Below, piece after piece: positions 70-31,753 of a stretch of DNA of 32,000 nt. The DNA lies in assembly GCF_000009965.1 (NCBI RefSeq), contig NC_006624.1, positions 270,001-302,000 of the forward strand, in the 5' to 3' direction. The notes beneath the pieces were generated by a model that saw only the letters and a list, made by a program, of their open reading frames with translations, was not told the origin of the DNA and made no database searches. The DNA is from Thermococcus kodakarensis KOD1 (GTDB lineage: Archaea > Methanobacteriota_B > Thermococci > Thermococcales > Thermococcaceae). A program made the position numbers and the translations under genes. Within the stretch, counting starts at the first letter, position 1, and every line of letters begins with the position of its first letter.

Positions 70-311
70 GAAAGGGCTCCGTTAAGGAAGTGCTGGCGAA
101 GATAAAGTACGACCCGCGGGAGAAGGAGGAGGACTACTACGTTGTCATCGAGCACAGGGGGGCTTATGGTGGGGAAAAGAAAATACCGGTCGAGCTTATC
201 GAGCTCGGACACGGCTACTTCTTCGTTGGAGAAGCCCAGATACCCTACCACAGAATCCTGCGCGTCGTTAGAAAGGATGGAAAAGTCATCTGGGAGACGA
301 AGAAGCTATAG
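66..311 (+). CDS. DUF504/UPF0248 family small protein
   Basis: ORF 57..311. The ATG at 66 overlaps the upstream stop (ATGA), so I prefer it to the GTG at 57. The sequence KEVLAKIKYDPRE...YYVVIEHRG...IPYHRILRV resembles the conserved archaeal UPF0248 family as I recall it. Confidence 0.6.
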   Translation: MRKGSVKEVLAKIKYDPREKEEDYYVVIEHRGAYGGEKKIPVELIELGHGYFFVGEAQIPYHRILRVVRKDGKVIWETKKL

Positions 312-1283
312 TATAACTTCAAACTCAGACGTGAGCAGGCCCCACTCCTTCTTCTCAAAGGCATCCGGATTGGCGCTTACTATGATGTACCCATTGTAGA
401 CCATGGCAGCGTCCTTTACGTAGAGCAGAAAATCCATTGCATCCTTGAAGCCAAGTTCAACAACCAGGTAACCAACATTCTGGACAAACACAACTCCCTG
501 CTTTCCGTTTTCTTTTGCAGATTTGAGGAACTTAAGGAGCTCGCCTTTGAGTTCGGGGACGAACTTTGGGGGCACTACCTTCCCGGGGTATTCCTCTGAG
601 ATTTTTGAGACCCATATCACGTTGTCTATCTCAGTGAGCTCTCTAAACTTGTCCGGGTGCTCCCTTATAACTGCTATCACTTCCCTGTTTTCCGTCAGCA
701 TATCTAAGAGAATGTACTTTGCTTTCTCGTCGTCGGTTACCAGATAAGCACCCGATCCTAGCCTCTCTATAAAGACGTGCCTGCGCTCAAAGGAGATAAC
801 GATATCGTAGACCTTCTTTATCTCTTCGTAGTGTTTCTGCTCAATCTGTGAAAGCTCGAAGGCTATTCCCCGGACATCTTCGTTCTCGGCAACGCCAGCC
901 AATATTTCATAAGTCCTCTTTGCGAAGAGCTCGCTCTCCATGCAGTACTCCAGCGCCCTTATGTAGTCCTCAACCTTTTCAAACTCAGGATAGAATGGAT
1001 AGACCTCCACTGGGGGAACATCTACCTTAACGGGCTCCTCTCCTGGAAAGAGCCGCTCAAACGTCCTTCTGAGGAGGAGTTCATGCCCCTTGCTCTCCCT
1101 GCTCATCTTTTTAAACAGGGCTCTCACACTCTTTCTTTTCGCCTTCTCGGCAAGTTCGGCATAGTATTTTGCCTCGTCCTCCTCATTGAAGATAGCATAG
1201 CTCAGAAGCTCCTTTGGGCTGAGTCTCTTTAACCTCTCAATTATCTCGTTCATGATAACCTGGGGGTTGGGGTGAGAAGTCAT
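306..1283 (-). CDS. Ferritin/rubrerythrin-like four-helix-bundle domain fused to a C-terminal DUF835 domain
   Basis: 325-aa ORF. The N-terminal half has paired helices with acidic/His motifs (EEDEAKYYAELA, ESKGHE, CMESELFAKR, IEQKHYEEI). The C-terminal half (AVIREHPDKF...VIWVSK...GVVFVQNVGYLV...DFLLYVKD) looks like DUF835. Confidence 0.55.
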   Translation of the reverse strand: MTSHPNPQVIMNEIIERLKRLSPKELLSYAIFNEEDEAKYYAELAEKAKRKSVRALFKKMSRESKGHELLLRRTFERLFPGEEPVKVDVPPVEVYPFYPEFEKVEDYIRALEYCMESELFAKRTYEILAGVAENEDVRGIAFELSQIEQKHYEEIKKVYDIVISFERRHVFIERLGSGAYLVTDDEKAKYILLDMLTENREVIAVIREHPDKFRELTEIDNVIWVSKISEEYPGKVVPPKFVPELKGELLKFLKSAKENGKQGVVFVQNVGYLVVELGFKDAMDFLLYVKDAAMVYNGYIIVSANPDAFEKKEWGLLTSEFEVIL

Positions 1284-4062: not shown

Positions 4063-4248
4063 GGAGAAAAGTTGGATGCTGTGGTTAAAAGCCCTCCGCC
4101 GGTAGGTGGCTCATCACACTTCAGGCGGGAGTAGTTCTTCATCGGGCCTCAGATCCTCCCCCCAGGCCTCACCGGTCGGGGAGTGCCCACCCTCCTCATC
4201 GGCCCGATAGTATTTTAGACCTTTCCGCTAAAAGCTCTCGGTGGTGGC

Positions 4249-4968
4249 ATGATAAAGGTTGGAACCTGCGGCTTCTGTGAGGCTCGGAGTAAGTACTTTA
4301 GAGACTTTGACGCAGTCGAGGTGCAGCAGACTTTCTACCGGATTCTCCAGGAGAAGACGCTGGAGCGCTGGAGGAAAGAAGCTCCCGAGGGCTTCACATT
4401 CTCGATAAAGGCCTTTCAGGGAGTAACCCATCCAGCGAACAGCCCGACCTGGAGGAGGAGCAACGTAAAACCCGGAAAAGACGTGGGTCTGCTCAGGCCA
4501 ACGAGCGACGTCCTTCACTTCTGGAGGGTAACGCTGAAGGAGGCCGAAACCCTTGGCGCAAGGTTCATTCTCATCCAGCTACCGAAGAGCTTCAGGGAGA
4601 GTGATGAGAGCTTTGCCAACGCGGAGAAGTTCTTCGAGATGATAGACAGGGGAAACTTTGAGATAGCCGTCGAGCTGAGGGGATGGAGCGAGAAGGGAAT
4701 TAAGCGCTTCGTGAGGGAGTTCGACGTCATAGATGTCACAGACCCGCTCGTCAGGATTCCACTTCACACGGGGGATGTCAGCTACTACCGCCTGCACGGT
4801 CGCTATGAAAACGGGAGAATAATATACAGCCACTCCTACAGCGACGAGGAGCTTCAAAAGGCCAGGGAGAGGGTGATTGGCTGGAATAGGGGTGAAAGCT
4901 TCGTATTCTTCAACAACTCGGACATGTGCAAAGACGCGAAGAGGTTCAAGACTCTGCTAGCCGGTTAA
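4249..4968 (+). CDS. DUF72 (UPF0759) family protein
   Basis: IKVGTCGF...FDAVEVQQTFYR...W...PEGFTFSIKAFQGVTH matches the DUF72 N-terminal signature. Confidence 0.75.
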   Translation: MIKVGTCGFCEARSKYFRDFDAVEVQQTFYRILQEKTLERWRKEAPEGFTFSIKAFQGVTHPANSPTWRRSNVKPGKDVGLLRPTSDVLHFWRVTLKEAETLGARFILIQLPKSFRESDESFANAEKFFEMIDRGNFEIAVELRGWSEKGIKRFVREFDVIDVTDPLVRIPLHTGDVSYYRLHGRYENGRIIYSHSYSDEELQKARERVIGWNRGESFVFFNNSDMCKDAKRFKTLLAG

Positions 4969-5193
4969 CCATTTGGGGTCTGATAGCATTCTTTCACTAT
5001 TATTGATTTTGAAAAATTAAAGTTCTTACAACTGGATTATATAACTTTGCGAATGTCTAGTTATCTGTAAAGGATATTTTATCCATCCAGTTATAGATCG
5101 ATTTATTTTTCATTTTTTTTAACTAAGAGTCCAAGCAATACTTAAATATGGGTTTAGTATTCATGATACTGCCTGGTAGAATGTATAATCTCT

Positions 5194-5212
5194 CCCGGGC
5201 AGGAGGGTCGGC
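5194..5212. repeat. Left copy of a 19-bp perfect direct repeat, CCCGGGCAGGAGGGTCGGC
   Basis: Identical to 9703-9721, and 23 nt long with one mismatch. It ends 3 nt before the ATG at 5216 and contains that gene's GGAGG. Confidence 0.9.
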
Positions 5213-5215
5213 GCC

Positions 5216-5569
5216 ATGAAGAAGCTTGTTGCCGTGCTGTTCGGTCTCTTGGTAGTGACAGCAGGGTTCGCAGCAGCGACTCAGTGGAGAGTCACTTCAG
5301 TGCATCAGAGACATGCTGGAAGATATGGCTGGGCCTATGCAGAGGTGCATGTTAAGTACGACTTGCAGCACCCGTACACTAACTATAAGATAACCCACAG
5401 AATCGGAAGAGGCGGACTTACTAGTGCCGGTCGGAGTGCCGGGTACATCTCTCACCATTACAACATTCCCGACAGAGATGGCATTGAGTCCGTGACTAAC
5501 GTTGTGGACCCCACGACGGATAATCTTGTGGAACAGGACATAGCCTCTGCAGGATGGCTGTGCATTTGA
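5216..5569 (+). CDS. Small secreted protein of unknown family (signal peptide plus a mature part of about 95 aa)
   Basis: MKKLVAVLFGLLVVTAGFAAA is a typical signal peptide. The mature part is rich in His/Tyr/Gly/Arg and ends ...SAGWLCI. A GGAGG lies 10 nt upstream. First gene of the cassette. Confidence 0.65.
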   Translation: MKKLVAVLFGLLVVTAGFAAATQWRVTSVHQRHAGRYGWAYAEVHVKYDLQHPYTNYKITHRIGRGGLTSAGRSAGYISHHYNIPDRDGIESVTNVVDPTTDNLVEQDIASAGWLCI

Positions 5570-5616
5570 ATTCTAACATGTCTGTCTGTTTTTTATTTCG
5601 TTTGGAGGGTATACCA

Positions 5617-6696
5617 ATGACGCTAAAAAGAAAAGGTTTCGTTCTACTAACAGCTTTTCTGCTGGCTATGCTTCCCCTGTCCCTATCGAGCGCAGCACCC
5701 TACTGGGTCAAGCCTGGAGTTTACATAGAGTACGCGGCCATGCGGTACGACCCGTACATCCAGTACAAGATTTCCCAGGGGACTTCTCCAAAGTTAATTA
5801 GAACCGCATACATTACTTATATCCACAACGGCACGTTATACCGAATCAGGGTCTACGATGATGTCCACGTCAGGTTCAGGGTACTGGAAGAAAAGAACGG
5901 CTACTTAACGGTAGGGGTTCGTATCGAGATGAGAAACGTAACCCTGGGAGTCAGCGTCCCCAAGGGAAAAAATCTGACTCCGATATGGGGCGATGGGGCG
6001 GTTATAAAGATTGAGACCTCTCCAAGCTCAATAGACTCGGAGACAGATTATTACAAAGTGTACCTTCGCAGTCTTAGGATCATCAGAGTTTACAGGATAA
6101 GGGAAATCGACGGTGCCGTCTTTGACATGAACGGAACTTATTACGGCCACACCTTCCTGTGGGTGGACATCGACCCGAGCACAGCTCCCCAGGAAAACGA
6201 GACCTTCTTTGTTCTCCCAGACTTGAACTGGACGATGAGAGTAAACAGAATCTCCTCCATGGACAAAGCTTTAAAAACGTACTACGGAGAATTCGGGCCT
6301 CCCGTGGACACTCTCTCCCTGGTGGGCCCCCCGCTTGTAATAAAAGGCATTGTAGAATTCACAAGTCCAACAGGGGGAGGTATACGTTACGATCCTGCCA
6401 CTGGACTCGTGCTTGCTCCGACAACTCTCTCAGTAATGATTTCTCCCGATCTTTCGGCAATAGGAATACCCTTTGCAATGTTCATGGACGAGCATGTGGC
6501 TTACGACCAGTTTGTAAAGAACAGTTTCACATGGGCAGGCACATTGCTACTTTACGATACTAACGCCCAGTTTCAAAAGGCCGAAGAAGTTCCTTTCCCT
6601 AAACCAGGGACGCCTGCCAAGTATGTTTTCTACGGTTCCCTAATCTTAGTTGGGGCAGTTCTGGGAATTAAAAGCTCACGGAGAGTGAAAAAGTGA
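5617..6696 (+). CDS. Secreted, C-terminally anchored surface protein, paralog A (unknown family)
   Basis: ORF 5554..6696. I prefer the ATG at 5617, which is preceded by GGAGGG at 5604-5609. Signal peptide MTLKRKGFVLLTAFLLAMLPLSLSS. Six N-x-S/T sequons. C-terminal TM anchor YVFYGSLILVGAVLGI followed by KSSRRVKK. Confidence 0.75.
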   Translation: MTLKRKGFVLLTAFLLAMLPLSLSSAAPYWVKPGVYIEYAAMRYDPYIQYKISQGTSPKLIRTAYITYIHNGTLYRIRVYDDVHVRFRVLEEKNGYLTVGVRIEMRNVTLGVSVPKGKNLTPIWGDGAVIKIETSPSSIDSETDYYKVYLRSLRIIRVYRIREIDGAVFDMNGTYYGHTFLWVDIDPSTAPQENETFFVLPDLNWTMRVNRISSMDKALKTYYGEFGPPVDTLSLVGPPLVIKGIVEFTSPTGGGIRYDPATGLVLAPTTLSVMISPDLSAIGIPFAMFMDEHVAYDQFVKNSFTWAGTLLLYDTNAQFQKAEEVPFPKPGTPAKYVFYGSLILVGAVLGIKSSRRVKK

Positions 6697-7763
6697 AAAG
6701 AGACTTCTTAGCCTTCCCTTTGGTTTTAATACTTACACTTCCGGCAGTCTCCGCAGCACCCTACTGGACCAAACCGGGAGTTTACATCGAGTATGCCGCT
6801 ATGAGATATGAGCCGTACATCCAGTACCGGCTTTCACAGGGAGACAGGCCGGAGTGGATTCAGACCTCGCTGATGGTTTACAATTATTCAGGGGTTCTAT
6901 ACATACTGAGGACGTTCAACGACACGATTGTAGAGTTCCGCCTCAAAAAGGAGAGGGATTACATACGCTCAAACGTACAGGTAACCCTTTACAACGTCAG
7001 CATAAGCACGACCCTCCCAAAGGATATATCGCCACCCGTATTCTGGAACGAGTCAGAGGTAATAGAGACCGAGGTCGAAAACAGCCACGATTTGGGGTTT
7101 GAAGACTGGAAATGGTACCGATTCCATGTGAAGAAAGTTGTCATCAGTGGAGAGTACCTAATCCGCGTGAAGGATTACCATGTCATAAAGGGAAATATGG
7201 ACTACGGGCACACGATGCTTTTTGATGACCCTGCGAACCCGTTAAACAAGGGGAACAGCTTCAGCTTATACCCGATAAGCATAAAGATTCAAGACGCCAG
7301 AATTGACAACGAGAGAGTCCTAAAAGGAAGATACACCAAGTTCTATCCCCCCACAAAAACCGTAGTGACGGGGGCCTATGCTCTCAACATCACCCAGCCG
7401 TTTGGGAAGGGCTACAACATCCTCTCAATTCTGATGGGGACACTAATATACACCTTCGACGCATCCGACGGAAAGCTAATCGCCACTTACAACGATGGAC
7501 CTGATCTATGGGCAGTCGGCATCTTGGACGCTCAGTTCACAGACGAATACGGTCAGTATAAGATGGAGGTCGAGCATGAAGAGTCATACGCCAGTGGTCT
7601 CGTCCTTAGATCGTTCAAAATTGCTAGAGAAAATGTCAAAGGAGAGGTCTCATTCAACAAGCCAATAGCAAAAGCCGCCTATCTCTTTTACGCTTCCCTC
7701 GTACTACTGGGCCTAGGCCTCGTGCTAAATATCAAGGCGAGTGACAAGAGAGGGGGTGATTGA
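6693..7763 (+). CDS. Secreted, C-terminally anchored surface protein, paralog B (unknown family)
   Basis: GTG start overlaps the upstream stop (GTGA). It has a signal peptide and five N-x-S/T sequons. The C-terminal TM anchor is YLFYASLVLLGLGLVLNI. It aligns with the preceding gene along its whole length (YGHTFLW/YGHTMLF, PDLSAIGI/PDLWAVGI). Confidence 0.75.
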   Translation: MKRDFLAFPLVLILTLPAVSAAPYWTKPGVYIEYAAMRYEPYIQYRLSQGDRPEWIQTSLMVYNYSGVLYILRTFNDTIVEFRLKKERDYIRSNVQVTLYNVSISTTLPKDISPPVFWNESEVIETEVENSHDLGFEDWKWYRFHVKKVVISGEYLIRVKDYHVIKGNMDYGHTMLFDDPANPLNKGNSFSLYPISIKIQDARIDNERVLKGRYTKFYPPTKTVVTGAYALNITQPFGKGYNILSILMGTLIYTFDASDGKLIATYNDGPDLWAVGILDAQFTDEYGQYKMEVEHEESYASGLVLRSFKIARENVKGEVSFNKPIAKAAYLFYASLVLLGLGLVLNIKASDKRGGD

Positions 7764-8531
7764 ATGGGAAGGCTCTACACCCTTTTTAGATGGGAAATGA
7801 ACGACCTGATAAAGGTCGTTCTGCTGTTTTTTGGAATACTGCTTGTTGGAATGTCAATGAAACAGGAACTAATGGGGGTTAGCAATTCTATGGGTTTCAT
7901 CTCCGGAACGGATCTACAGCTCTTTGGAGCTTCCCAGGCCAGTGGAGTATCAACGTCCATTCAAGGCATGCTCAGTCTCGAAGACGTCTGGACCCTCGCA
8001 GGTTTTCTGATACTGTTGCTCGGCGCGCTGACCTTCCGCTATGACCGTGACAGCGGCGTTGCAAAGTCTGTCTACTCCCTCCCGTACTCCAACGACGAAA
8101 TATTCGGCATCAAGCTCATCTCGTTGTTAATCTACGGGTCCCTGATGCTCCTTCTGCCCTTCGCTTACGTTGCCATAACAACATACGCCAGCATAGCCGG
8201 CTACCTCCCGGAGATAACCTCAAGATTCCTCAGCGATGCACTGCTCCTCGTTGCTTTCCTCGTGCTCTACCTAATAGCGGTCGCCACTCTGGTTTCCCTT
8301 GCCTTCCCCAACGCCTTCCTCGCCTTCATGGCAGGGTTTGCAGTCATATACGCGCCCAAAATACTCGGAAACTCGAGCATGCCACCAGCGCTCTTCATAA
8401 ACGCCTTACACCTCTGTGGAAGTACCGACTTCAATGTGTTCAAGGCCGCCTACCTTGAGTGGGGGATTGTCGTCCCAATAGTGATCTTCCTCCTCTCGTG
8501 GGTTCTCATCAGAAGGAGGGATGTCGTATGA
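7764..8531 (+). CDS. ABC-2-type (NosY/COG1277-like) permease
   Basis: Polytopic membrane protein with about 6 TM segments. The N-terminal RWEMNDLIK and the FRYDRDSGVAKSVYSLPYSNDEIFGIKLIS block resemble the ExGT..LL..P.sR...GK motif of ABC-2 permeases. Confidence 0.6.
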   Translation: MGRLYTLFRWEMNDLIKVVLLFFGILLVGMSMKQELMGVSNSMGFISGTDLQLFGASQASGVSTSIQGMLSLEDVWTLAGFLILLLGALTFRYDRDSGVAKSVYSLPYSNDEIFGIKLISLLIYGSLMLLLPFAYVAITTYASIAGYLPEITSRFLSDALLLVAFLVLYLIAVATLVSLAFPNAFLAFMAGFAVIYAPKILGNSSMPPALFINALHLCGSTDFNVFKAAYLEWGIVVPIVIFLLSWVLIRRRDVV

Positions 8532-8986
8532 GGTTCTGGGCGGCCCTCCTTGCGGCCATGCTGATGCTCACCGTCGGCTCACTATGGGTCTACAGCTCCT
8601 ACGAGGGCAGGATAGGCTCCGCTGGGCCGGCCTTCCTCACGACATCAAAGGATGGAAACCGAACCGACATGAGCCAGGTTACGATCTACACCCCCACGAG
8701 TTCGCTCGTAAATGTCTCCTGCAACGGCAACGGAATAGTTGAGGTCTACGACATCATCACAGGGAAGTTGGTGGACAGGCACACCGTCTACGGCCATGCG
8801 AGGTACCAGATCGTTCTTCCAAGGGAAGGGGACTACCTGGTCATCAACAACCACACCGACGAGGTCTCATGTTCATTCCGCTTCGTCAAAAACTATCCGA
8901 CCAGAGAAGTCCAGAACGCCCTCTACGTTAGCGGGTCAATTTTTGCGCTACTCCTTGCCCTTATCATCTGGAGGTGGGGGAGATGA
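8528..8986 (+). CDS. Bitopic membrane protein with an extracytoplasmic beta-rich domain (unknown family)
   Basis: ORF 8459..8986. The ATG at 8528 overlaps the upstream stop (ATGA). N-terminal TM (FWAALLAAMLMLTVGSLWVY) and C-terminal TM (SIFALLLALIIW). Three N-x-S/T sequons. Confidence 0.6.
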   Translation: MRFWAALLAAMLMLTVGSLWVYSSYEGRIGSAGPAFLTTSKDGNRTDMSQVTIYTPTSSLVNVSCNGNGIVEVYDIITGKLVDRHTVYGHARYQIVLPREGDYLVINNHTDEVSCSFRFVKNYPTREVQNALYVSGSIFALLLALIIWRWGR

Positions 8987-9741
8987 AGACCATAATAGAG
9001 GCCAGAGACCTTAAAAAGCACTTCAGGAGCATCAAGGCCCTTGACGGGATTACCGTTGAGATTCTTGAAGGTGTAACGCTCATTCTCGGTCCCAACGGTG
9101 GCGGAAAGAGCACGTTCCTCAAGCTCGCCACAGGCGTTTACAGGCCGACCTCGGGAGAAATCCTCGTGTTCGGAGAGAGACCGTGGAACAACAGGAGTGT
9201 CAAGGAGCGTTTCAGCGTTGCCTATGACCCTCCTGCGTTTCCGCAGTTCGTGACGGGAAGGGAGTGGCTGAAGTTCTTCGCAGAGAGCAGGGGAGTTGGT
9301 GAGGAGTCCATAATTAAAGCTGCAGAGCTCTTCGATGCGACCTCCTTCCTGGACAAAAGGATAAGCGAGTACTCGTCTGGGATGCTGAAGAGGATTTCAC
9401 TCGCTCAGGCCTTTGTGGGGGAGCCAGAGCTGGTTTTTCTCGACGAGCCGCTGGCCAACATTGACTTCGACAGCATGGAGAAAGTCGTCGAAGTCATCGA
9501 GGGCATGAAAGGCAAGAGAAGCTTCGTGATAATCAGCCACATCTGGGAGCCATTGATGCCTGTAGTGGACTGGGTCGTCGTGATTGGGAACGGGAAGCTC
9601 GTGTTGAGCGGAAGGGCCGAAGAAGTGCAGGAAGATGTCGAGAAGCTCTTTAAACCGCGCATAAGACGTTCAAAAGAGGGAGGAGCCAAGGAAAGCCCCT
9701 CCCCCGGGCAGGAGGGTCGGCAAACTCCCACCAGCGTTTGA
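8983..9741 (+). CDS. ABC transporter ATP-binding protein
   Basis: Walker A GPNGGGKST, variant signature YSSGMLKR, Walker B LVFLDEP, H-loop IISH. The ATG at 8983 overlaps the upstream stop (ATGA). The low-complexity C-terminal tail reads through the right repeat copy. Confidence 0.85.
   Translation: MKTIIEARDLKKHFRSIKALDGITVEILEGVTLILGPNGGGKSTFLKLATGVYRPTSGEILVFGERPWNNRSVKERFSVAYDPPAFPQFVTGREWLKFFAESRGVGEESIIKAAELFDATSFLDKRISEYSSGMLKRISLAQAFVGEPELVFLDEPLANIDFDSMEKVVEVIEGMKGKRSFVIISHIWEPLMPVVDWVVVIGNGKLVLSGRAEEVQEDVEKLFKPRIRRSKEGGAKESPSPGQEGRQTPTSV
9703..9721. repeat. Right copy of the 19-bp perfect direct repeat, CCCGGGCAGGAGGGTCGGC
   Basis: Identical to 5194-5212. It lies within the last 13 codons of the ABC ATPase gene (..PGQEGRQTPTSV*). 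Confidence 0.9.
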
Positions 9742-25119: not shown

Positions 25120-26631
25120 GTGAAAGCCAAGATCCGCATACTCGATATGTTCAGTGGGAGGTACACTGTTCTAATAAACGAGGAAGATGCCAAGGAGGCA
25201 AAGCTTCACCCGGACGACCTCGTTAAGATAGAGGCAGGTAAGAAGGCCGTCTATGGCAGCGTTGCCCTCAGCAACCTCGTCGGAAAGGGTGAGGTCGGTA
25301 TAAGCAGGGACGTACTTGACCTTCACAACTTCTCGGAGGGCGAAACCGTCAGCGTTATCCCTGCCGGGACTCCAGAGAGCGTCCGCTACATCAAGAAGAA
25401 GATGCACGGCGAGAAGCTCAGGAAGGTCGAGATAGAGGCCATCGTGAGGGACATCGTTGACAGGAAGCTCAGGGACATCGAGATAAGCTCCTTCGTGACG
25501 GCCCTTGAGATAAACGGCCTCGACATGGACGAGATAGCGGCTCTGACCATAGCGATGGCAGAGACGGGGGACATGCTCGATATTGATCGGAAGCCGATAA
25601 TGGACGTCCACAGCATCGGCGGCGTCCCGGGAAACAAAACCAACATTCTCGTCGTCCCGATAGTGGCGGCGGCAGGTTTAACTATTCCAAAGACCAGCTC
25701 AAGGGCTATCACCAGCGCCGCGGGAACTGCCGACGTTGTCGAGGTTTTTGCGGACGTCAGCTTCTCCCTCGACGAGATAAAGCGCATCGTCGAGAAGGTC
25801 GGGGCATGTCTGGTCTGGGGCGGTGCGCTCAACCTGGCACCCGCGGATGACATAACGATAAAGGCCGAGCGTGCGCTGAGCATCGACCCCACTGGCCTGA
25901 TGCTGGCCAGCATAATGTCAAAGAAGTACGCTATGGGCAGTCAGTACGTTCTCATTGACATCCCGACTGGAAAGGGTGTTAAGGTGGAGACTGTCGAGGA
26001 GGCCAGGAGCCTTGCCAGGGACTTCATAGAGCTTGGAAAGAGGCTCGGCCAGTACGTTGAGGTTGCAATAACCTACGGTGGTCAGCCAATAGGACACACC
26101 GTCGGCCCTGCCCTCGAAGCCAGGGAGGCCCTCTCCGCTCTCATGACTGGCAAAGGCCCTGGAAGCCTAATAGAAAAGGCCACAGGACTGGCCGGAATAC
26201 TCCTTGAGATGGGTGGCGTTGCACCCGCCGGAACTGGCAAGAAAATGGCCAAAGAAATCCTCGAGAGCGGCAAGGCCTGGGAAAAGATGAAGGAAATCAT
26301 CGAGGCCCAGGGCGGAGACCCGAACATCAAGCCCGAGGAGATACCCATCGGCGACAAGACCTACACCTTCACCGCCGCCACGAGCGGTTACGTCACAGCA
26401 ATAGACAACAGGGCGATAACTGCCATAGCGAGGGCCGCTGGAGCGCCTGAGGACAAGGGAGCTGGAATCGAGCTCTACGTCAAGGTCGGGGAAAAGGTCA
26501 AGGAGGGCGACCCGCTCTTCACGATACACGCCGAGCACGAGGCGAGGCTCGACCAGGCGATAGTCCTCGCCAGAAGGACTGAACCGATAAGAATAGAAGG
26601 AATGGTTCTCCAGCGAATCGGCAACATCTGA
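25120..26631 (+). CDS. deoA: AMP phosphorylase (thymidine phosphorylase family, archaeal type)
   Basis: 503 aa with the extra N-terminal domain ([26 protein letters not shown]) and a glycosyl-transferase family 3 core ([25 protein letters not shown]). The length and N-terminus match the archaeal AMP phosphorylase. Confidence 0.9.
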
Positions 26632-27777: not shown

Positions 27778-28707
27778 ATGTCATCACAGGCTATCCTGAT
27801 CGAAAACCTTACAAAATCATACGGTACGTTCAGGGCCGTGGACGGCCTTACTTTCGACGTGAAAGTGGGGGAAGTTTTTGGATTTCTGGGACCGAATGGA
27901 GCTGGAAAGACCACAACGATTCTCAGCATGCTCGGCATCATCATCCCCGACGATGGGAGAATAGAGATACTGGGAATGGACATGTCGAGGGAGCCGATAA
28001 AAATCAAGGAGCGCATCGGCTACCTCCCTGAAAACGCCACTATCTACGGCGAACTTACCGCCTGGAAAAACCTGGAGTTCTTTGCCAACTTTTACAGGAT
28101 GAGCAATTCCGAGAGGGAAAAGCGGATAACTGAACTTCTCAAGAGGGTTGGTCTCTGGGATGCCCGCTATCGGAAGGCCAAGACGTTTTCAAAGGGCATG
28201 AAGCAGCGCCTTCTCCTTGCACAGGCTCTTATCAACGACCCGGAGCTGTTGATACTCGACGAACCAACGAGCGGGCTCGATCCAGAGGGAGCGCATTTGG
28301 TTAAGGAAGTAATTCGGGAGGCGAAGGCTGAGGGAAGGACCGTCTTCTTCTCAAGCCACATCCTCAGCGAGGTCGAGGAGCTGAGCGACCGCGTCGGCAT
28401 AATCGTCCGCGGAAGGCTAAAAGCAGTTGGCCCTATACGGGAAATAAAGCGTCAGTTCATGGAGCTTGAGGGCTACGAGATAAAGGTGGAGACGAAAGAG
28501 CCCATACCTGAGCTTCGGCATGAGGAAATCACCAGGGTTGAGCGCCTCGCCCCAAATAGGATTATCCTTTTTGCCCGCTCGGATATAAGGGAGTGGCTCT
28601 CCCAGTACCTCACTTCGAAGGGAGTCACTATCTTGAGCCTTGAGGTTGAAGAACCAAGCCTTGAGGATGTTTTCATGAAGACGATCTACGGGAGGGATGA
28701 GGAATGA
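27778..28707 (+). CDS. ABC transporter ATP-binding protein (ABC-2 / CcmA-like subfamily)
   Basis: Walker A GPNGAGKTT, signature FSKGMKQR, Walker B LLILDEPTSGLD and H-loop SSH. Confidence 0.9.
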   Translation: MSSQAILIENLTKSYGTFRAVDGLTFDVKVGEVFGFLGPNGAGKTTTILSMLGIIIPDDGRIEILGMDMSREPIKIKERIGYLPENATIYGELTAWKNLEFFANFYRMSNSEREKRITELLKRVGLWDARYRKAKTFSKGMKQRLLLAQALINDPELLILDEPTSGLDPEGAHLVKEVIREAKAEGRTVFFSSHILSEVEELSDRVGIIVRGRLKAVGPIREIKRQFMELEGYEIKVETKEPIPELRHEEITRVERLAPNRIILFARSDIREWLSQYLTSKGVTILSLEVEEPSLEDVFMKTIYGRDEE

Positions 28708-30830
28708 GGAAAGCCTTTCTCCTTTTGCTGTCCATGCTCCTTCTTTTGCCCCTAGCGAGCGCCCAGCCGTACGTGACGGTCTTTGAAGGACGGATTGCAC
28801 CGGAACATGCGATAACCGTGGGCGACTACACCGTTACGGTGGTCAAATCAGCAGTGGGGACACCGTATCTCATGCTGAAGAAAGGAGCTGAAATTCTTGA
28901 ACTCATGCCCTTTGACTTCGGGCGCGAAATAGAGCGCGATGGCATCAGAGTGGTTATGGGAAGCTACACCCCACAGGGCGGTTTTGTGGTTGTCTCCGTT
29001 AAGCCAAAGTTAGTAGCTTCCCTTAAACCGAAGGTTGGGGAGAGGGTCTCGTTCAACGGCACAACGGTCGAAGTTACCTCGGTTGGCGCTGAAACCGTTG
29101 ATGTTTCAGTAAACGGGGTGACCAAAACGCTTGAAGTCAACGGAAGCGCTGTGGTTGATCTAGTGGCACTCGAATACAATGGAAAGGAGATAAGGGTTTA
29201 CGTCGCTGACCCCGCCTCGGAGATCGTGAACCTGGAGTACGCGGTCTTCTACCCGTATCGGAAGGTTAGAGCTTCTGGACCCGTTGACGTGCCGATCACT
29301 ATTACCAGCTCCAGCGACGTTGAGCTGAACCTGAAGCTCGGCATTCTCTCCCTGCCCTCTGGCTGGAAGGCGAACTTCATCTACGGGGGCGTTGAGGTGG
29401 GTGAAATATCGGTTCCACCGAAGGGAACGGTCAGCCTGACCCTCCACATTGAGCCGACTGGAAGCGGCGTGGTGAAGTTTACCGTTGGGAATTTCACAGG
29501 CAGCCTGGAAGTTGAGAGTGCTGGAATCGAAGTTTCAATTCCCTACCTAAGCCTGGAAGCGGAAGCGGGAACCAGCCTGAGCGTGCCGGTTGCCTTCGCA
29601 GGGACGGGAAGGGTTGAGTTCACCCCTGGAAGCGTTCCACAGGGGTGGGGGGTATATTTAACGGACGGCAGGTACAGGCTGAGGAGCTTCGATGTCGATG
29701 GAAGCTTCACCGCGGAGCTGGTGGTGGAGATACCGAGAAACGCGACCCTTGGAGACCACAGGATAGAGTTCGAGGTTAACGGGCAGAGCTATGCTCTGAA
29801 CGTTTACGTGTACAAGACGTACCTCGGAGAGCCTGCAAAGCTCACTGTAATCCTCACTGATGAGAGCGGAAACCCCATTCGGGGATGGGTTTCGGTCGGC
29901 GGTGAGAACGTTACAGTTTCCCCCGCGGGATCCGCAAACTTTGAGCTCAAGCCAGGGGAGTACACCGTGCTGGCTGGCGCAGAGGGCTGTTCCCCAGTCG
30001 AAGAGGACGTTAAGCTCTCCGATGGGGAGGAGAGAACCCTGACCATAAAGCTCAGGCGCGCGGAGTACTACTTCAAGGCTTCCCTAGAGAGGGATGTCCT
30101 AACCGTAACATCAGGAAGTGGGGGGAGCGTCGCGATAACTATCAAGAACCTCGGATCCAAGGACGACGATTACAGGGTCACTGTTGAAGGGCTCCCCGAG
30201 GGCTGGAGCTACATCCTCAGCCAGGACCCCAAAGGCACCGTTCCAATAGCGAGCATTAAAGTCCCGAGCGGAGAAAGTGGAAGCGCATATCTAGTCATCC
30301 TTCCGCCGTTCAACGTAGAATCCGGGGACTTAAACGCCACGGTGGTCGTTTCAGGCTCAAACTCAAGAGTTGAGCTTCCCCTCAAGATTCATGTCGAGAA
30401 CCCTGCGTCCCTCCGCGTAAACGTGGACAATCCAACCCTGACGGTTAAAGCGGGTGGAAGCACCGCCACTGCACTCTGGCTGGATGCGATGGGAACAGTT
30501 ACCAACGTCAAGTTCACAGTACAGGCCCCGAGCGGCTGGGACGTTGAAGTTGTCCCATCAACGATTCCCCGCGTTGGGATGGGGGGAAGAGGCGGTGTTT
30601 ACTGGTCAACGGGGCCGGCCCAGGCCGAACTCAGGATCCGCGTTCCAAAATCAGCTCCCGCAGGTACGTACACTATAACCGTGACGGCTGCGGGTGATCA
30701 GGCAAAGGCCGAGACCGTGGTAACCGTCAGGGTTGCTCAGAGCTCAAGCGGCACCTGGATCGGCATCCTCCTCCTTGTGGTGGCGTTCGGCGTGGTGATA
30801 TGGCTTATGAGGAGGGTAGGCAGGAGATGA
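28704..30830 (+). CDS. Large secreted, C-terminally anchored protein with repeated NEW3/CARDB-like and CarboxypepD_reg-like beta-sandwich domains
   Basis: Signal peptide MRKAFLLLLSMLLLLPLASA. Repeats of the v.v.N.G......v.l..P.GW type (ITIKNLGSKDDDYRVTVEGLPEGWSY; KFTVQAPSGWDVEV). A PEGxYTV-like segment (LKPGEYTVLAGAEG). C-terminal TM WIGILLLVVAFGVVIWL plus a basic tail. Overlaps both neighbouring genes by 4 nt. Confidence 0.75.
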   Translation: MRKAFLLLLSMLLLLPLASAQPYVTVFEGRIAPEHAITVGDYTVTVVKSAVGTPYLMLKKGAEILELMPFDFGREIERDGIRVVMGSYTPQGGFVVVSVKPKLVASLKPKVGERVSFNGTTVEVTSVGAETVDVSVNGVTKTLEVNGSAVVDLVALEYNGKEIRVYVADPASEIVNLEYAVFYPYRKVRASGPVDVPITITSSSDVELNLKLGILSLPSGWKANFIYGGVEVGEISVPPKGTVSLTLHIEPTGSGVVKFTVGNFTGSLEVESAGIEVSIPYLSLEAEAGTSLSVPVAFAGTGRVEFTPGSVPQGWGVYLTDGRYRLRSFDVDGSFTAELVVEIPRNATLGDHRIEFEVNGQSYALNVYVYKTYLGEPAKLTVILTDESGNPIRGWVSVGGENVTVSPAGSANFELKPGEYTVLAGAEGCSPVEEDVKLSDGEERTLTIKLRRAEYYFKASLERDVLTVTSGSGGSVAITIKNLGSKDDDYRVTVEGLPEGWSYILSQDPKGTVPIASIKVPSGESGSAYLVILPPFNVESGDLNATVVVSGSNSRVELPLKIHVENPASLRVNVDNPTLTVKAGGSTATALWLDAMGTVTNVKFTVQAPSGWDVEVVPSTIPRVGMGGRGGVYWSTGPAQAELRIRVPKSAPAGTYTITVTAAGDQAKAETVVTVRVAQSSSGTWIGILLLVVAFGVVIWLMRRVGRR

Positions 30831-31753
30831 ACCCCATCTGGAACCTGGCTCTCAAGGAGCTCTACGTCTCTGTAAAGAGCAGAAGGTTCATCGTTATCGT
30901 TGTCCTCTACTTTATCATTTTTGGACTGGCCGTCTACTCTATCAAGGATTACCTTGTGCAGATGGGCGTTCCGAGCGTCGACTCCAACGAGCTTGGCCTC
31001 TGGGGTGTCAGCGCCGAGATTTACACAACACCCCTCGCGATGCTTTTCACCGTCAACATGACGATAATAACCGTCCTCGGTGCCGTCTTAGGTGTTGCCC
31101 TCGGCGCGGACGCGATAAACAGGGAAGTCGAGAGCGGTACAGTGAGGGTACTGCTCGGCCACCCCGTCTACCGCGACGAGATCATAAACGGAAAGTTCCT
31201 CGGCATGGGTTTGCTGATAGCCGTGACTTACATGGTCTCTTACATAGTCATGATAGCCGTAATGCTCATCCTTGGAATACCCCTCGACGGAGAATCACTT
31301 TTTAGGAGCTTCCTGGCGATTCTGGTGACAATGCTCTACACGATGGTCTTCTTATCCCTGGGAATCCTCCTCTCTACGCTCTCAAAGAAGCCCGAAACCT
31401 CAATGCTGGCGGGAGTCGGTCTTGCCATCTTCCTGACGGTGTTCTATGGCATAGTAGTAGGCATAGTCGCTCCAAAGCTCGCTGGCCCCGAACCTCCAAT
31501 AGGCACAAGTGCCTACCAGATATGGGCCGATGAGCTCCACGTCTGGATGAACAGGCTTCACTCCATAAACCCCGCCCACCACTATGTTCAGCTGGTCAGC
31601 TACATCTTCGCAGGCGACAGGTTCTTCAACTACTACATCCCGCTGAGCGATTCACTCATCTACGGCTTCAACAACCTCGCAGCCCTGCTTGTAATGCTGC
31701 TCCTGCCCTTTGCCCTGGCTTATGCCAGGTTCCTCACAAGCGATCTGAACTGA
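30827..31753 (+). CDS. ABC-2-type permease (NosY/COG1277-like)
   Basis: The ATG at 30827 overlaps the upstream stop (ATGA). LALKELYVSVKSRRF N-terminus, then INREVESGTVRVLLGHPVYRDEIINGKFLG (ExGT..LL..P..R....GK motif). About 6 TM segments. Confidence 0.8.
   Translation: MNPIWNLALKELYVSVKSRRFIVIVVLYFIIFGLAVYSIKDYLVQMGVPSVDSNELGLWGVSAEIYTTPLAMLFTVNMTIITVLGAVLGVALGADAINREVESGTVRVLLGHPVYRDEIINGKFLGMGLLIAVTYMVSYIVMIAVMLILGIPLDGESLFRSFLAILVTMLYTMVFLSLGILLSTLSKKPETSMLAGVGLAIFLTVFYGIVVGIVAPKLAGPEPPIGTSAYQIWADELHVWMNRLHSINPAHHYVQLVSYIFAGDRFFNYYIPLSDSLIYGFNNLAALLVMLLLPFALAYARFLTSDLN

Follow-up and report, generated by a model that had tools for sequence, protein, structure and literature searches.

A conserved N-terminal block in mosaic surface proteins of the Thermococcales encoded with an ABC-2 module

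The gene pair and its family

Within a stretch of 32,000 nucleotides of the Thermococcus kodakarensis KOD1 genome (NCBI RefSeq assembly GCF_000009965.1, contig NC_006624.1, positions 270,001 to 302,000 of the forward strand; here called the window, whose own numbering is used throughout), two adjacent open reading frames (ORFs) encode large surface glycoproteins: ORF A, of 359 residues (5617..6696, + strand), and ORF B, of 356 residues (6693..7763, + strand). An earlier, sequence-only reading of the window had noted that the two proteins begin their mature chains with almost the same 30 residues and align only loosely thereafter. What keeps this one segment constant in proteins that otherwise differ, and what does it do? 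The comparisons reported here place both proteins in a family whose signal peptides and bodies are uncoupled from each other, with the constant segment, termed the N-block, as the recombination junction; this is a new finding.

The alignment of the pair bears out the observation from which the question arose. By BLASTP, A (type 'A', cluster 10) and B (type 'B', cluster 1) are 34% identical over 342 columns (E-value 5e-49), and the loosely matching motifs RVYDDVHVRFRV/RTFNDTIVEFRL, YGHTFLW/YGHTMLF and PDLSAIGI/PDLWAVGI are found in that same alignment, in which the signal peptides are unlike each other. The signal peptide of A comprises residues 1-25 (5617..5691, +), with cleavage by signal peptidase I (SPase I) predicted between SSA and A from the family-wide -3/-1 pattern; in B, the predicted site lies between VSA and A. 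The N-block follows directly, as AAPYWVKPGVYIEYAAMRYDPYIQYKISQG in A (5692..5781, +) and at 6753..6842 (+) in B, where it is also a recombination breakpoint (see below). Between the two copies, 26 of 30 residues and 73 of 90 nucleotides are the same (81% DNA identity), and the block is the sole long direct repeat of the operon (90 nucleotides, 82%).

Both proteins have the features of anchored glycoproteins, as had been proposed. A and B alike end in a hydrophobic stretch followed by a basic tail; the predicted membrane anchor is KYVFYGSLILVGAVLGI in A (6619..6669, +), within a modelled helix of residues 333-358, and AYLFYASLVLLGLGLVLNI in B (7677..7733, +). Residues Y336, F338, and L342 of the A anchor are almost invariant in the family alignment. 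N-glycosylation sequons number six in A, against 1.3 expected from composition shuffles (P=0.001), and five in B, against 1.8 expected (P=0.03); over 67 family members they are enriched 3.5-fold (7.7 observed, 2.2 expected). One site, N107-V108-T/S, is conserved across the family alignment, N107 and V108 being invariant; in A it is the NVT at 5935..5943 (+). This enrichment, together with the conserved site, fits archaeal surface glycoproteins.

A word-indexed search returned 36 relatives, and an exhaustive profile search with HMMER, covering 1.8 billion representatives, returned 57; a second profile search, again word-indexed, added almost no members. Wherever the source of a member is named, it is a Thermococcus or a Pyrococcus, PF0884 and TON_1034 being examples, and 'hypothetical protein' is the annotation throughout. 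At 50% identity, the bodies fall into at least 11 types. The distant members are 17-28% identical to A and retain the motifs YG[HRK]T, F.PP, and PD..A.G as well as the C-terminal anchor. The family is thus uncharacterised and restricted to the Thermococcales. No relatives were found on plasmid, phage, or IMG/VR records, and an origin in a mobile element was ruled out on this ground.

The sequence-only reading did not recognise the family, and the databases searched do not contain it either. Neither A nor B has a match in Pfam, NCBIfam, PADLOC, or PHROGs; no Pfam family was found when A, B, and 39 relatives were scanned singly at E-values up to 1; and A, B, and the family profile have no credible match among PDB sequences. 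A alone matched designed 'Symfoil' beta-trefoils among the latter (E-value 5.6e-4), a candidate that was rejected because B and the family profile match nothing and the targets are artificial repeats. An archaeosortase-type C-terminal signal (PGF-CTERM and related) was also sought, and no NCBIfam match was obtained for A or B at E-values up to 1. With the family alignment as input, AlphaFold2 confidently predicts for A a beta-rich structure with two strands of ~20 residues (predicted local distance difference test, pLDDT, 87.8; predicted template modelling score, pTM, 0.80). A Foldseek search of the PDB and BFVD with this model gave no match with an E-value below 1e-3; herpesvirus gB, OrfX2, and gasdermin stood in its top rows, with E-values of ~1e-2 at best and template modelling (TM) scores below 0.2, and were taken as noise.

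The constancy of the N-block extends well beyond the pair. Among 33 Thermococcus members, no window of 30 residues is better conserved than residues 26-55. In pairs of proteins whose bodies are less than 45% identical, identity is 67% in the block (82% for residues 26-40), compared with 42% in the C-terminal region, 33% in the body, and 21% in the signal peptide. The core, tallied over 61 full-length relatives, is P (57), Y (49), W (59), x, K (52), P (44), G (59), V (45), Y (53), x, x, Y (61), where the numbers are the members having that residue; it begins one residue past an alanine at -1 (43 of 61), with V, A, or S at -3 (47 of 61). The block is therefore predicted, from these sequences, to stand at the mature N-terminus in nearly all members. 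Even the distant ones, Pyrococcus members among them, retain [P][Y/S][W]x[K/R]xGxYxxY right behind an AxA-type cleavage site. Of the AAPYW..YIQY block expected in homologues, then, the first half (PYW..Y) is indeed family-wide, and the RYDPYIQY half is restricted to Thermococcus subtypes. One member of a three-gene array (locus L003, 458-1543) lacks the PYW core altogether and has the mature start ...NALNFNETDYLTY, so that the motif is not absolutely universal.

The codons of the block speak to the level at which it is conserved. Ten of the 26 identical residues are specified by synonymously different codons in A and B, and where the residues agree, the codons do so too at 14/24 positions in the block versus 37/92 in the body (Fisher p=0.17). 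The synonymous differences indicate an old divergence and selection on the peptide, and they rule out recent gene conversion as the origin of the block and argue against a constraint at the level of DNA. In the AlphaFold2 model of A, residues 36-41 form a strand and residues 45-53 a helix, both at pLDDT 95-98.

Uncoupled signal peptides and bodies

If signal peptide and body descended together, their similarities would be expected to rise and fall together. Among 38 members, however, signal-peptide identity versus body identity gives a correlation of r=0.08. In 16 pairs the signal peptides are at least 70% identical and the bodies less than 50%; P0005 and P0032, for example, share all 21 of 21 signal-peptide residues and 40% of the body. 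Conversely, P0020/P0024, P0035/ORF B, and P0007/P0009 have bodies that are 89-92% identical and unrelated signal peptides.

Alignments of DNA locate the edges of the exchanged segments. Window positions 6758-9722 match locus L006, the closest relative of the window, at 95.2% identity, and the homology sets in 1 nucleotide 5' of the PYW codons of B; L006 lacks a counterpart of both B's signal peptide and the entire gene before it, and has a D-type gene in that place. For the C-type genes, the match between strain 18S1 and T. siculi runs from block position 0. The D-type match between L006 and T. siculi continues through the following signal peptide and ends 68 nucleotides into the block of the next gene. 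Thus, all three intra-array tracts of DNA homology have one edge in or next to the N-block (starts at -1 and 0, end at +68 nucleotides).

On this sequence evidence, the block is the junction where modules are exchanged, and the exchanged unit can comprise a preceding body plus the signal peptide of the next gene. The block is the sole stretch that stays similar between types and consequently serves as the crossover point. Recombination with 5' breakpoints at the block also explains why A and B have different signal peptides, a difference that the sequence-only reading had described correctly and that need not be attributed to simple divergence.

The rates of substitution point in the same direction. 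Between the window and L006, the ratio of nonsynonymous to synonymous rates (dN/dS) is 0.36 for B, 0.31 for the permease encoded downstream, 0.19 for the accessory protein with two transmembrane segments (two-TM protein), and 0.23 for the ATPase. Positive selection on B was ruled out, its ratio being close to that of the permease, and such ordinary values suggest that the diversity arises from old types and recombination rather than from fast positive selection.

A short conserved segment that borders variable modules and acts as a crossover point is familiar from the CdiA-CT/Rhs orphan arrays and from pilE/pilS, in which copy number is variable and the genes are mosaic. Unlike those systems, the variable part here is the whole surface ectodomain, not a toxin tip or a pilin segment, and all copies appear to be complete genes in one operon and to be expressed.

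The cassette and its ABC-2 module

ORFs A and B belong to an operon of six genes, which runs in the order small secreted protein, A, B, permease, two-TM protein, and ATPase, the last three forming an ATP-binding cassette (ABC) module. The first gene encodes 117 residues with a Sec-type signal peptide (5216..5569, +). The permease, of the ABC-2 (type V) class and NosY-like, has 255 residues (7764..8531, +); the two-TM protein has 152 residues, with a hydrophobic helix at either end of a domain of ~100 residues (8528..8986, +); and the ABC ATPase lies at 8983..9741 (+). Every junction from A onward is either a 4-nucleotide overlap or a direct abutment: B begins with a GTG that overlaps the stop codon of A (GTGA), and the two-TM gene overlaps the permease gene, and the ATPase gene the two-TM gene, by ATGA. 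A GGAGG stands ~13 nucleotides 5' of all six starts, and 13 nucleotides 5' of the ATG of ORF A.

When the ORFs of all fetched loci were classed with hidden Markov models built for this analysis, the order was found to be fixed wherever the neighbours could be read, that is, in 13 complete arrays and several partial ones: small gene (0-2 copies), large genes (1-3), permease, two-TM protein, ATPase. Complete arrays hold one large gene in 5 loci (both Pyrococcus loci included), two in 6, and three in 2, and one further array holds at least three. As to whether homologues always occur as tandem pairs beside ABC-2 genes, the ABC-2 link is strict in the readable loci; the pair is common and not obligatory. 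The combinations and order of types also vary, from A-B in the window to D-B in L006, A-C-D in strain 18S1, and D-C in T. siculi. This variation argues against an obligate A/B heterodimer, one of the two arrangements that had been envisaged for the pair; the other, paralogues diversified in specificity, agrees with the 11 or more types and their free mixing.

The small gene precedes the large genes in most loci. Copies were located at 5216-5569 of the window, at 4863-5201 and 6604-6954 of L008, at 6732-6968 of L009, and at 6480-6981 of L007. In T. nautili the arrangement is small-large-small-large, an interleaved duplication; in T. siculi the small gene is truncated to 78 residues, and in the strain 18S1 cassette it was not detected as an ORF. 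In the alignment of the small proteins, the signal peptide and N-terminal half are nearly invariant (YGWAYAEVGVKYDVQHPYTNY) and the C-terminal half is more variable. In the one pair of genes compared at the DNA level, window and L006, the promoter and 5' half share homology and the 3' half does not. The Pyrococcus counterparts are ~20% identical, a level at which homology is uncertain. No Pfam or NCBIfam family was found for the small protein, and by hhalign neither it nor the two-TM protein shows homology to the large proteins.

The cassette is flanked by a direct repeat. The 16-nucleotide element GGGCAGGAGGGTCGGC occurs exactly twice in the window, compared with 0.02 occurrences expected: the 5' copy (5197..5212, +) holds the Shine-Dalgarno sequence of the small gene, and the 3' copy (9706..9721, +) lies within the C-terminal tail of the ATPase, at codons GQEGRQ. 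It is the core of a 23-nucleotide repeat matching at 22 of 23 positions. In five Thermococcus cassettes neither the 5' nor the 3' copy varies, and T. nautili has the element before each of its two small genes; the cassettes of Pyrococcus lack it. An explanation at the level of RNA was rejected, given that no Rfam match, no consistent fold, and only chance-level IMG/VR matches were obtained. The element may be a terminal repeat tied to duplication or movement of the cassette.

Several features of the surroundings may be recorded here. In the window, the neighbours of the cassette are a DUF72 gene and a PHP-domain gene, despite its 95% DNA identity to the L006/L014 cassette; in four other Thermococcus genomes (L007, L008, L009, L014), it lies between genes for GTP cyclohydrolase (GCHY-1) and an HD-domain/EF-G protein. 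The content of guanine plus cytosine is 46-48% over positions 5001-8000 and 52-55% in the flanks. A ParE-toxin gene adjoins the cassette in T. siculi and strain 18S1, and McrBC is encoded nearby in T. siculi.

Within the ABC module, the ATPase is a generic one of the ABC-2 type (PF00005, E-value 3e-20, 73.7 bits against a cut-off of 25). In NCBIfam it comes closest to the lantibiotic-protection, DrrA, and GldA ATPases, without getting near any of their cut-offs; for TIGR03740, it scores 120.2 bits, short of the cut-off of 309.75. The permease scores 17.5 bits for Pfam ABC2_membrane_5, below the cut-off of 25, and one of its homologues, from T. zilligii, carries a precomputed match to PF12730. 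Its sequence homologues are all from Thermococcus and are 56-95% identical; one is annotated 'MYXO-CTERM' by its source, which has no bearing on the archaeosortase question. The two-TM protein has no Pfam or NCBIfam family. In PADLOC and PHROGs, no match was found for the small protein, A, B, the permease, or the two-TM protein, and the only PADLOC matches are generic P-loop ones.

Structure prediction points to the ABC-2 fold class for the permease, with NosY as the closest match of the model. In a Foldseek search with its AlphaFold model (pLDDT 69, pTM 0.74), NosY chains from NosFY, NosDFY, or NosDFYL structures make up 10 of the 12 top PDB matches, including the first ten, with probabilities of 0.99-1.0, TM scores of 0.48-0.58, and E-values of ~1e-2; ABCA, ABCH, and ABCG proteins come next. 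Conservation is 79% for the ATPase, 72% for the permease, and 70% for the two-TM protein, compared with 37% for the bodies of the large proteins. The two-TM protein evolves in step with the permease (r=0.96), whereas the large proteins are uncoupled from both (r up to 0.28).

A second ABC-2 operon of the window (27778-31753) encodes a DrrA-like ATPase, a protein of 708 residues, and an ABC2_membrane_2 permease. The middle gene product has a signal peptide, beta-sandwich domains of the NPCBM_assoc/NEW3 and CarboxypepD_reg families, a C-terminal anchor, and a basic tail. The two operons are therefore alike in combining an ATPase and an ABC-2 permease with a protein consisting of signal peptide, beta-rich ectodomain, anchor, and basic tail, and this similar design indicates that an ABC-2 pump with an anchored ectodomain protein recurs in this genome. 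However, the second operon has recognisable beta-sandwich domains, a different gene order, and a single copy of the ectodomain gene, and it lacks both the PYW block and a two-TM protein.

Candidate roles of the block, and other features of the window

The comparisons above establish the conservation of the block, the range of the family, its linkage to the cassette, and the mosaic recombination. The reading that we favour, to which we would assign somewhat less than an even chance, takes the large proteins to be ectodomains that can replace one another, each joined to a conserved ABC-2 engine through a constant N-terminal adaptor. In this model, the members would be Sec-exported, N-glycosylated ectodomain proteins held in the membrane by the C-terminal helix, and their genes, directly 5' of their own ABC module in one operon, would be translationally coupled. 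The mature N-terminus (x-PYW-x-KPG-VY-x-x-Y-AA) would be the constant part of the interchangeable ectodomain, kept by selection on the protein, and in the model the fold opens with it, as a strand and a helix. This segment and the C-terminal helix, itself moderately conserved, may jointly fit the variable ectodomain, at the surface of the membrane, to the permease and accessory protein. Hydrolysis of ATP could then act on or through the ectodomains, by analogy with the action of NosFY on NosD, or expel something that the ectodomains handle. Swapping of bodies and signal peptides at the block, within and between genomes, would give rise to arrays in which one, two, or three ectodomains differ from each other. 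The reading is supported indirectly, by the absolute linkage of the genes and their coupled translation, the pattern of constant and variable parts, the likeness of the permease to NosY, and the position of both ectodomain ends at the membrane.

One of the closest parallels is the NosDFY(L) complex of denitrifying bacteria, in which the six-helix permease NosY and its partners hold the extracytoplasmic protein NosD at the membrane (PMC8457098). Both systems combine an ABC-2 permease, of six helices in NosY and presumably so in the cassette, and a separate ATPase with a beta-rich extracytoplasmic protein that is encoded in the same operon and, in the Nos system, held at the membrane by the transporter (PMC8457098). 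However, the large proteins have no NosD or other Pfam domain, and the model shows a mixed beta fold without a match in the PDB; they have their own C-terminal anchor, N-glycosylation, and 1-3 variable copies; and the Nos system has no two-TM protein. Neither nosZ nor nosL is present in the cassette or its immediate neighbours in the window or the other readable loci.

A number of results weigh against our reading. The large proteins show no similarity to NosD, and the likeness of the permease to NosY rests on a mediocre model (pLDDT 69) and Foldseek E-values of ~1e-2. In a mirror-tree comparison within Thermococcus, the N-block and the permease co-vary at r=0.04, a value that informs neither way given how invariant the block is. 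The ordinary dN/dS values (B 0.36, permease 0.31) give no sign of rapid positive selection on the ectodomain. In addition, no paper was found that mentions the orthologues PF0883-PF0887 of P. furiosus or TON_1034 of T. onnurineus, and nothing was found on TK0329-TK0334 either, these last tags being unconfirmed estimates.

Two other explanations start from the position of the block at the very beginning of the mature chain. In Sulfolobus threads, the donor strand consists of the first 7 residues past the SPase I site, which do not differ among homologues, and the adjacent paralogue Saci_0405 has the same fold and N-terminal tail (PMC9715654). By analogy, the mature N-terminus could insert into a neighbouring subunit, so that the paralogues would form hetero-oligomers or short surface polymers whose assembly is aided by the ABC module. 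The block does start at the cleavage site, is rich in aromatic residues, contains a beta-strand, and is common to tandem paralogues; like the subunits of donor-strand filaments (Saci_0406/0405 threads, bundling pili, cannulae), the members are exported by Sec and SPase I and heavily N-glycosylated, and adjacent paralogues have in common an unvarying segment, rich in aromatic residues, right past the cleavage site (PMC9715654). However, the full-length members examined, distant ones included, have a C-terminal hydrophobic helix and basic tail, which would tether each subunit to the membrane, whereas the known donor-strand subunits are soluble, and they stand in an ABC-2 operon. Furthermore, no archaeosortase-type signal was detected, single-copy cassettes are common, no sequence or structural similarity of the large proteins to these filaments was detectable, and the PDB gave no structural match to thread, TasA, or pilin folds; we regard this explanation as improbable. 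Still less probable is that the block is a determinant of export or processing, recognised outside the ABC complex by signal peptidase, oligosaccharyltransferase, or a sorting or modifying enzyme. Its position, fixed at ~1 residue past the predicted cleavage site in ~60 members, would agree with such a role, yet the motif is missing from the small protein and from the 708-residue protein (mature end QPYVTVFEG). Since these other Sec-type proteins of the cassette and window lack it, general export does not need the motif; moreover, the block has no sequon, and residues 36-53 are modelled as elements of the folded core.

Two further explanations take the cassette's variability as their starting point. 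One is a system of immunity or resistance resembling LanFEG with LanI/LanH, whose genes likewise specify an ABC-2-type pump together with extracellular proteins anchored in the membrane and a small membrane protein with an accessory role. Here the small protein would be the effector, or the agent would be external and membrane-active, the large proteins would provide type-specific immunity or binding, and the ABC-2 pump would clear the agent. The NCBIfam similarity of the ATPase is weakly highest to the lantibiotic-protection subfamily and DrrA-type ATPases, the T. nautili arrangement suggests cognate pairs, and large genes without an intact small gene in other genomes resemble orphan immunity genes; in addition, the DNA homology of the small gene between window and L006 covers the promoter and 5' half and not the 3' half, and the ParE-toxin gene (T. 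siculi, strain 18S1) and McrBC (T. siculi) lie close by. However, the ATPase matches are far below family cut-offs (120 vs 310 bits), no PADLOC defence model is matched except the generic P-loop, and the small protein comes with a Sec signal of its own, no toxin domain being detectable in it by Pfam or NCBIfam. Unlike the large proteins, to which they have no similarity, LanI proteins are lipoproteins; no lantibiotic genes are present; and an invariant N-terminus of immunity proteins would be left unexplained. This explanation, too, seems unlikely. The other is that the block is conserved mainly as a DNA site for recombination or cassette switching and not for a role of the protein. The edges of the three homology tracts, the uncoupling of signal peptides from bodies, and the status of the block as the only long repeat between A and B would all be accounted for. 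Against this stand the synonymous differences at 10 of 26 codons, the DNA identity of 81%, a codon identity not significantly above that of other conserved residues (p=0.17), and the persistence of the amino-acid motif in distant members whose sequences have diverged. Since no other stretch is conserved, recombination would be expected to occur at the block in any case, and we consider a purely DNA-level role very doubtful.

If the adaptor reading is extended to function, the cassette would be a hitherto unrecognised archaeal system of surface variation, in which PYW-bounded ectodomains of a new fold are exchanged among the Thermococcales and plugged into a conserved ABC-2 motor that drives or resets them with ATP, and which would recognise viruses, vesicles, kin cells, or surfaces. 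This extension is speculative, and we would put its chances at about one in a handful. ABC-2 transporters with extracytoplasmic partners are already known; the partner family, the two-TM subunit, and the modularity mediated by recombination are new. The Thermococcales are model hyperthermophiles with genetic tools, and their surface proteins beyond the S-layer and archaella are poorly known. The present analysis defines a clade-specific surface module of six genes, for whose main protein no relative could be detected by sequence or fold in Pfam, NCBIfam, or the PDB, and whose constant/variable architecture is unusually clear, with direct evidence of module swapping. If docking of the ectodomains on the NosY-like permease were borne out, the cassette would represent a second, unrelated case of an ABC-2 complex whose work is done on an extracytoplasmic partner and is not just the pumping of a solute, and a tractable system for the role of such complexes in archaea. 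The invariant N-terminus of 12-15 residues provides both a handle for mutation and a sequence tag for finding further members.

Other features of the window lie apart from the cassette. Two adjacent C/D-box small RNA genes, sR10 (78 bits) and sR53 (49.7 bits), are located at 4093-4203 (- strand), between a gene for a pterin-binding-domain protein and the DUF72 gene. A 325-residue protein encoded at 306-1283 (- strand) fuses a rubrerythrin domain with DUF835. At 25120-26631, a protein of 503 residues with glycosyl-transferase family 3 and PYNP_C domains looks like an archaeal AMP phosphorylase, which we take to be TK0353 of T. kodakarensis.

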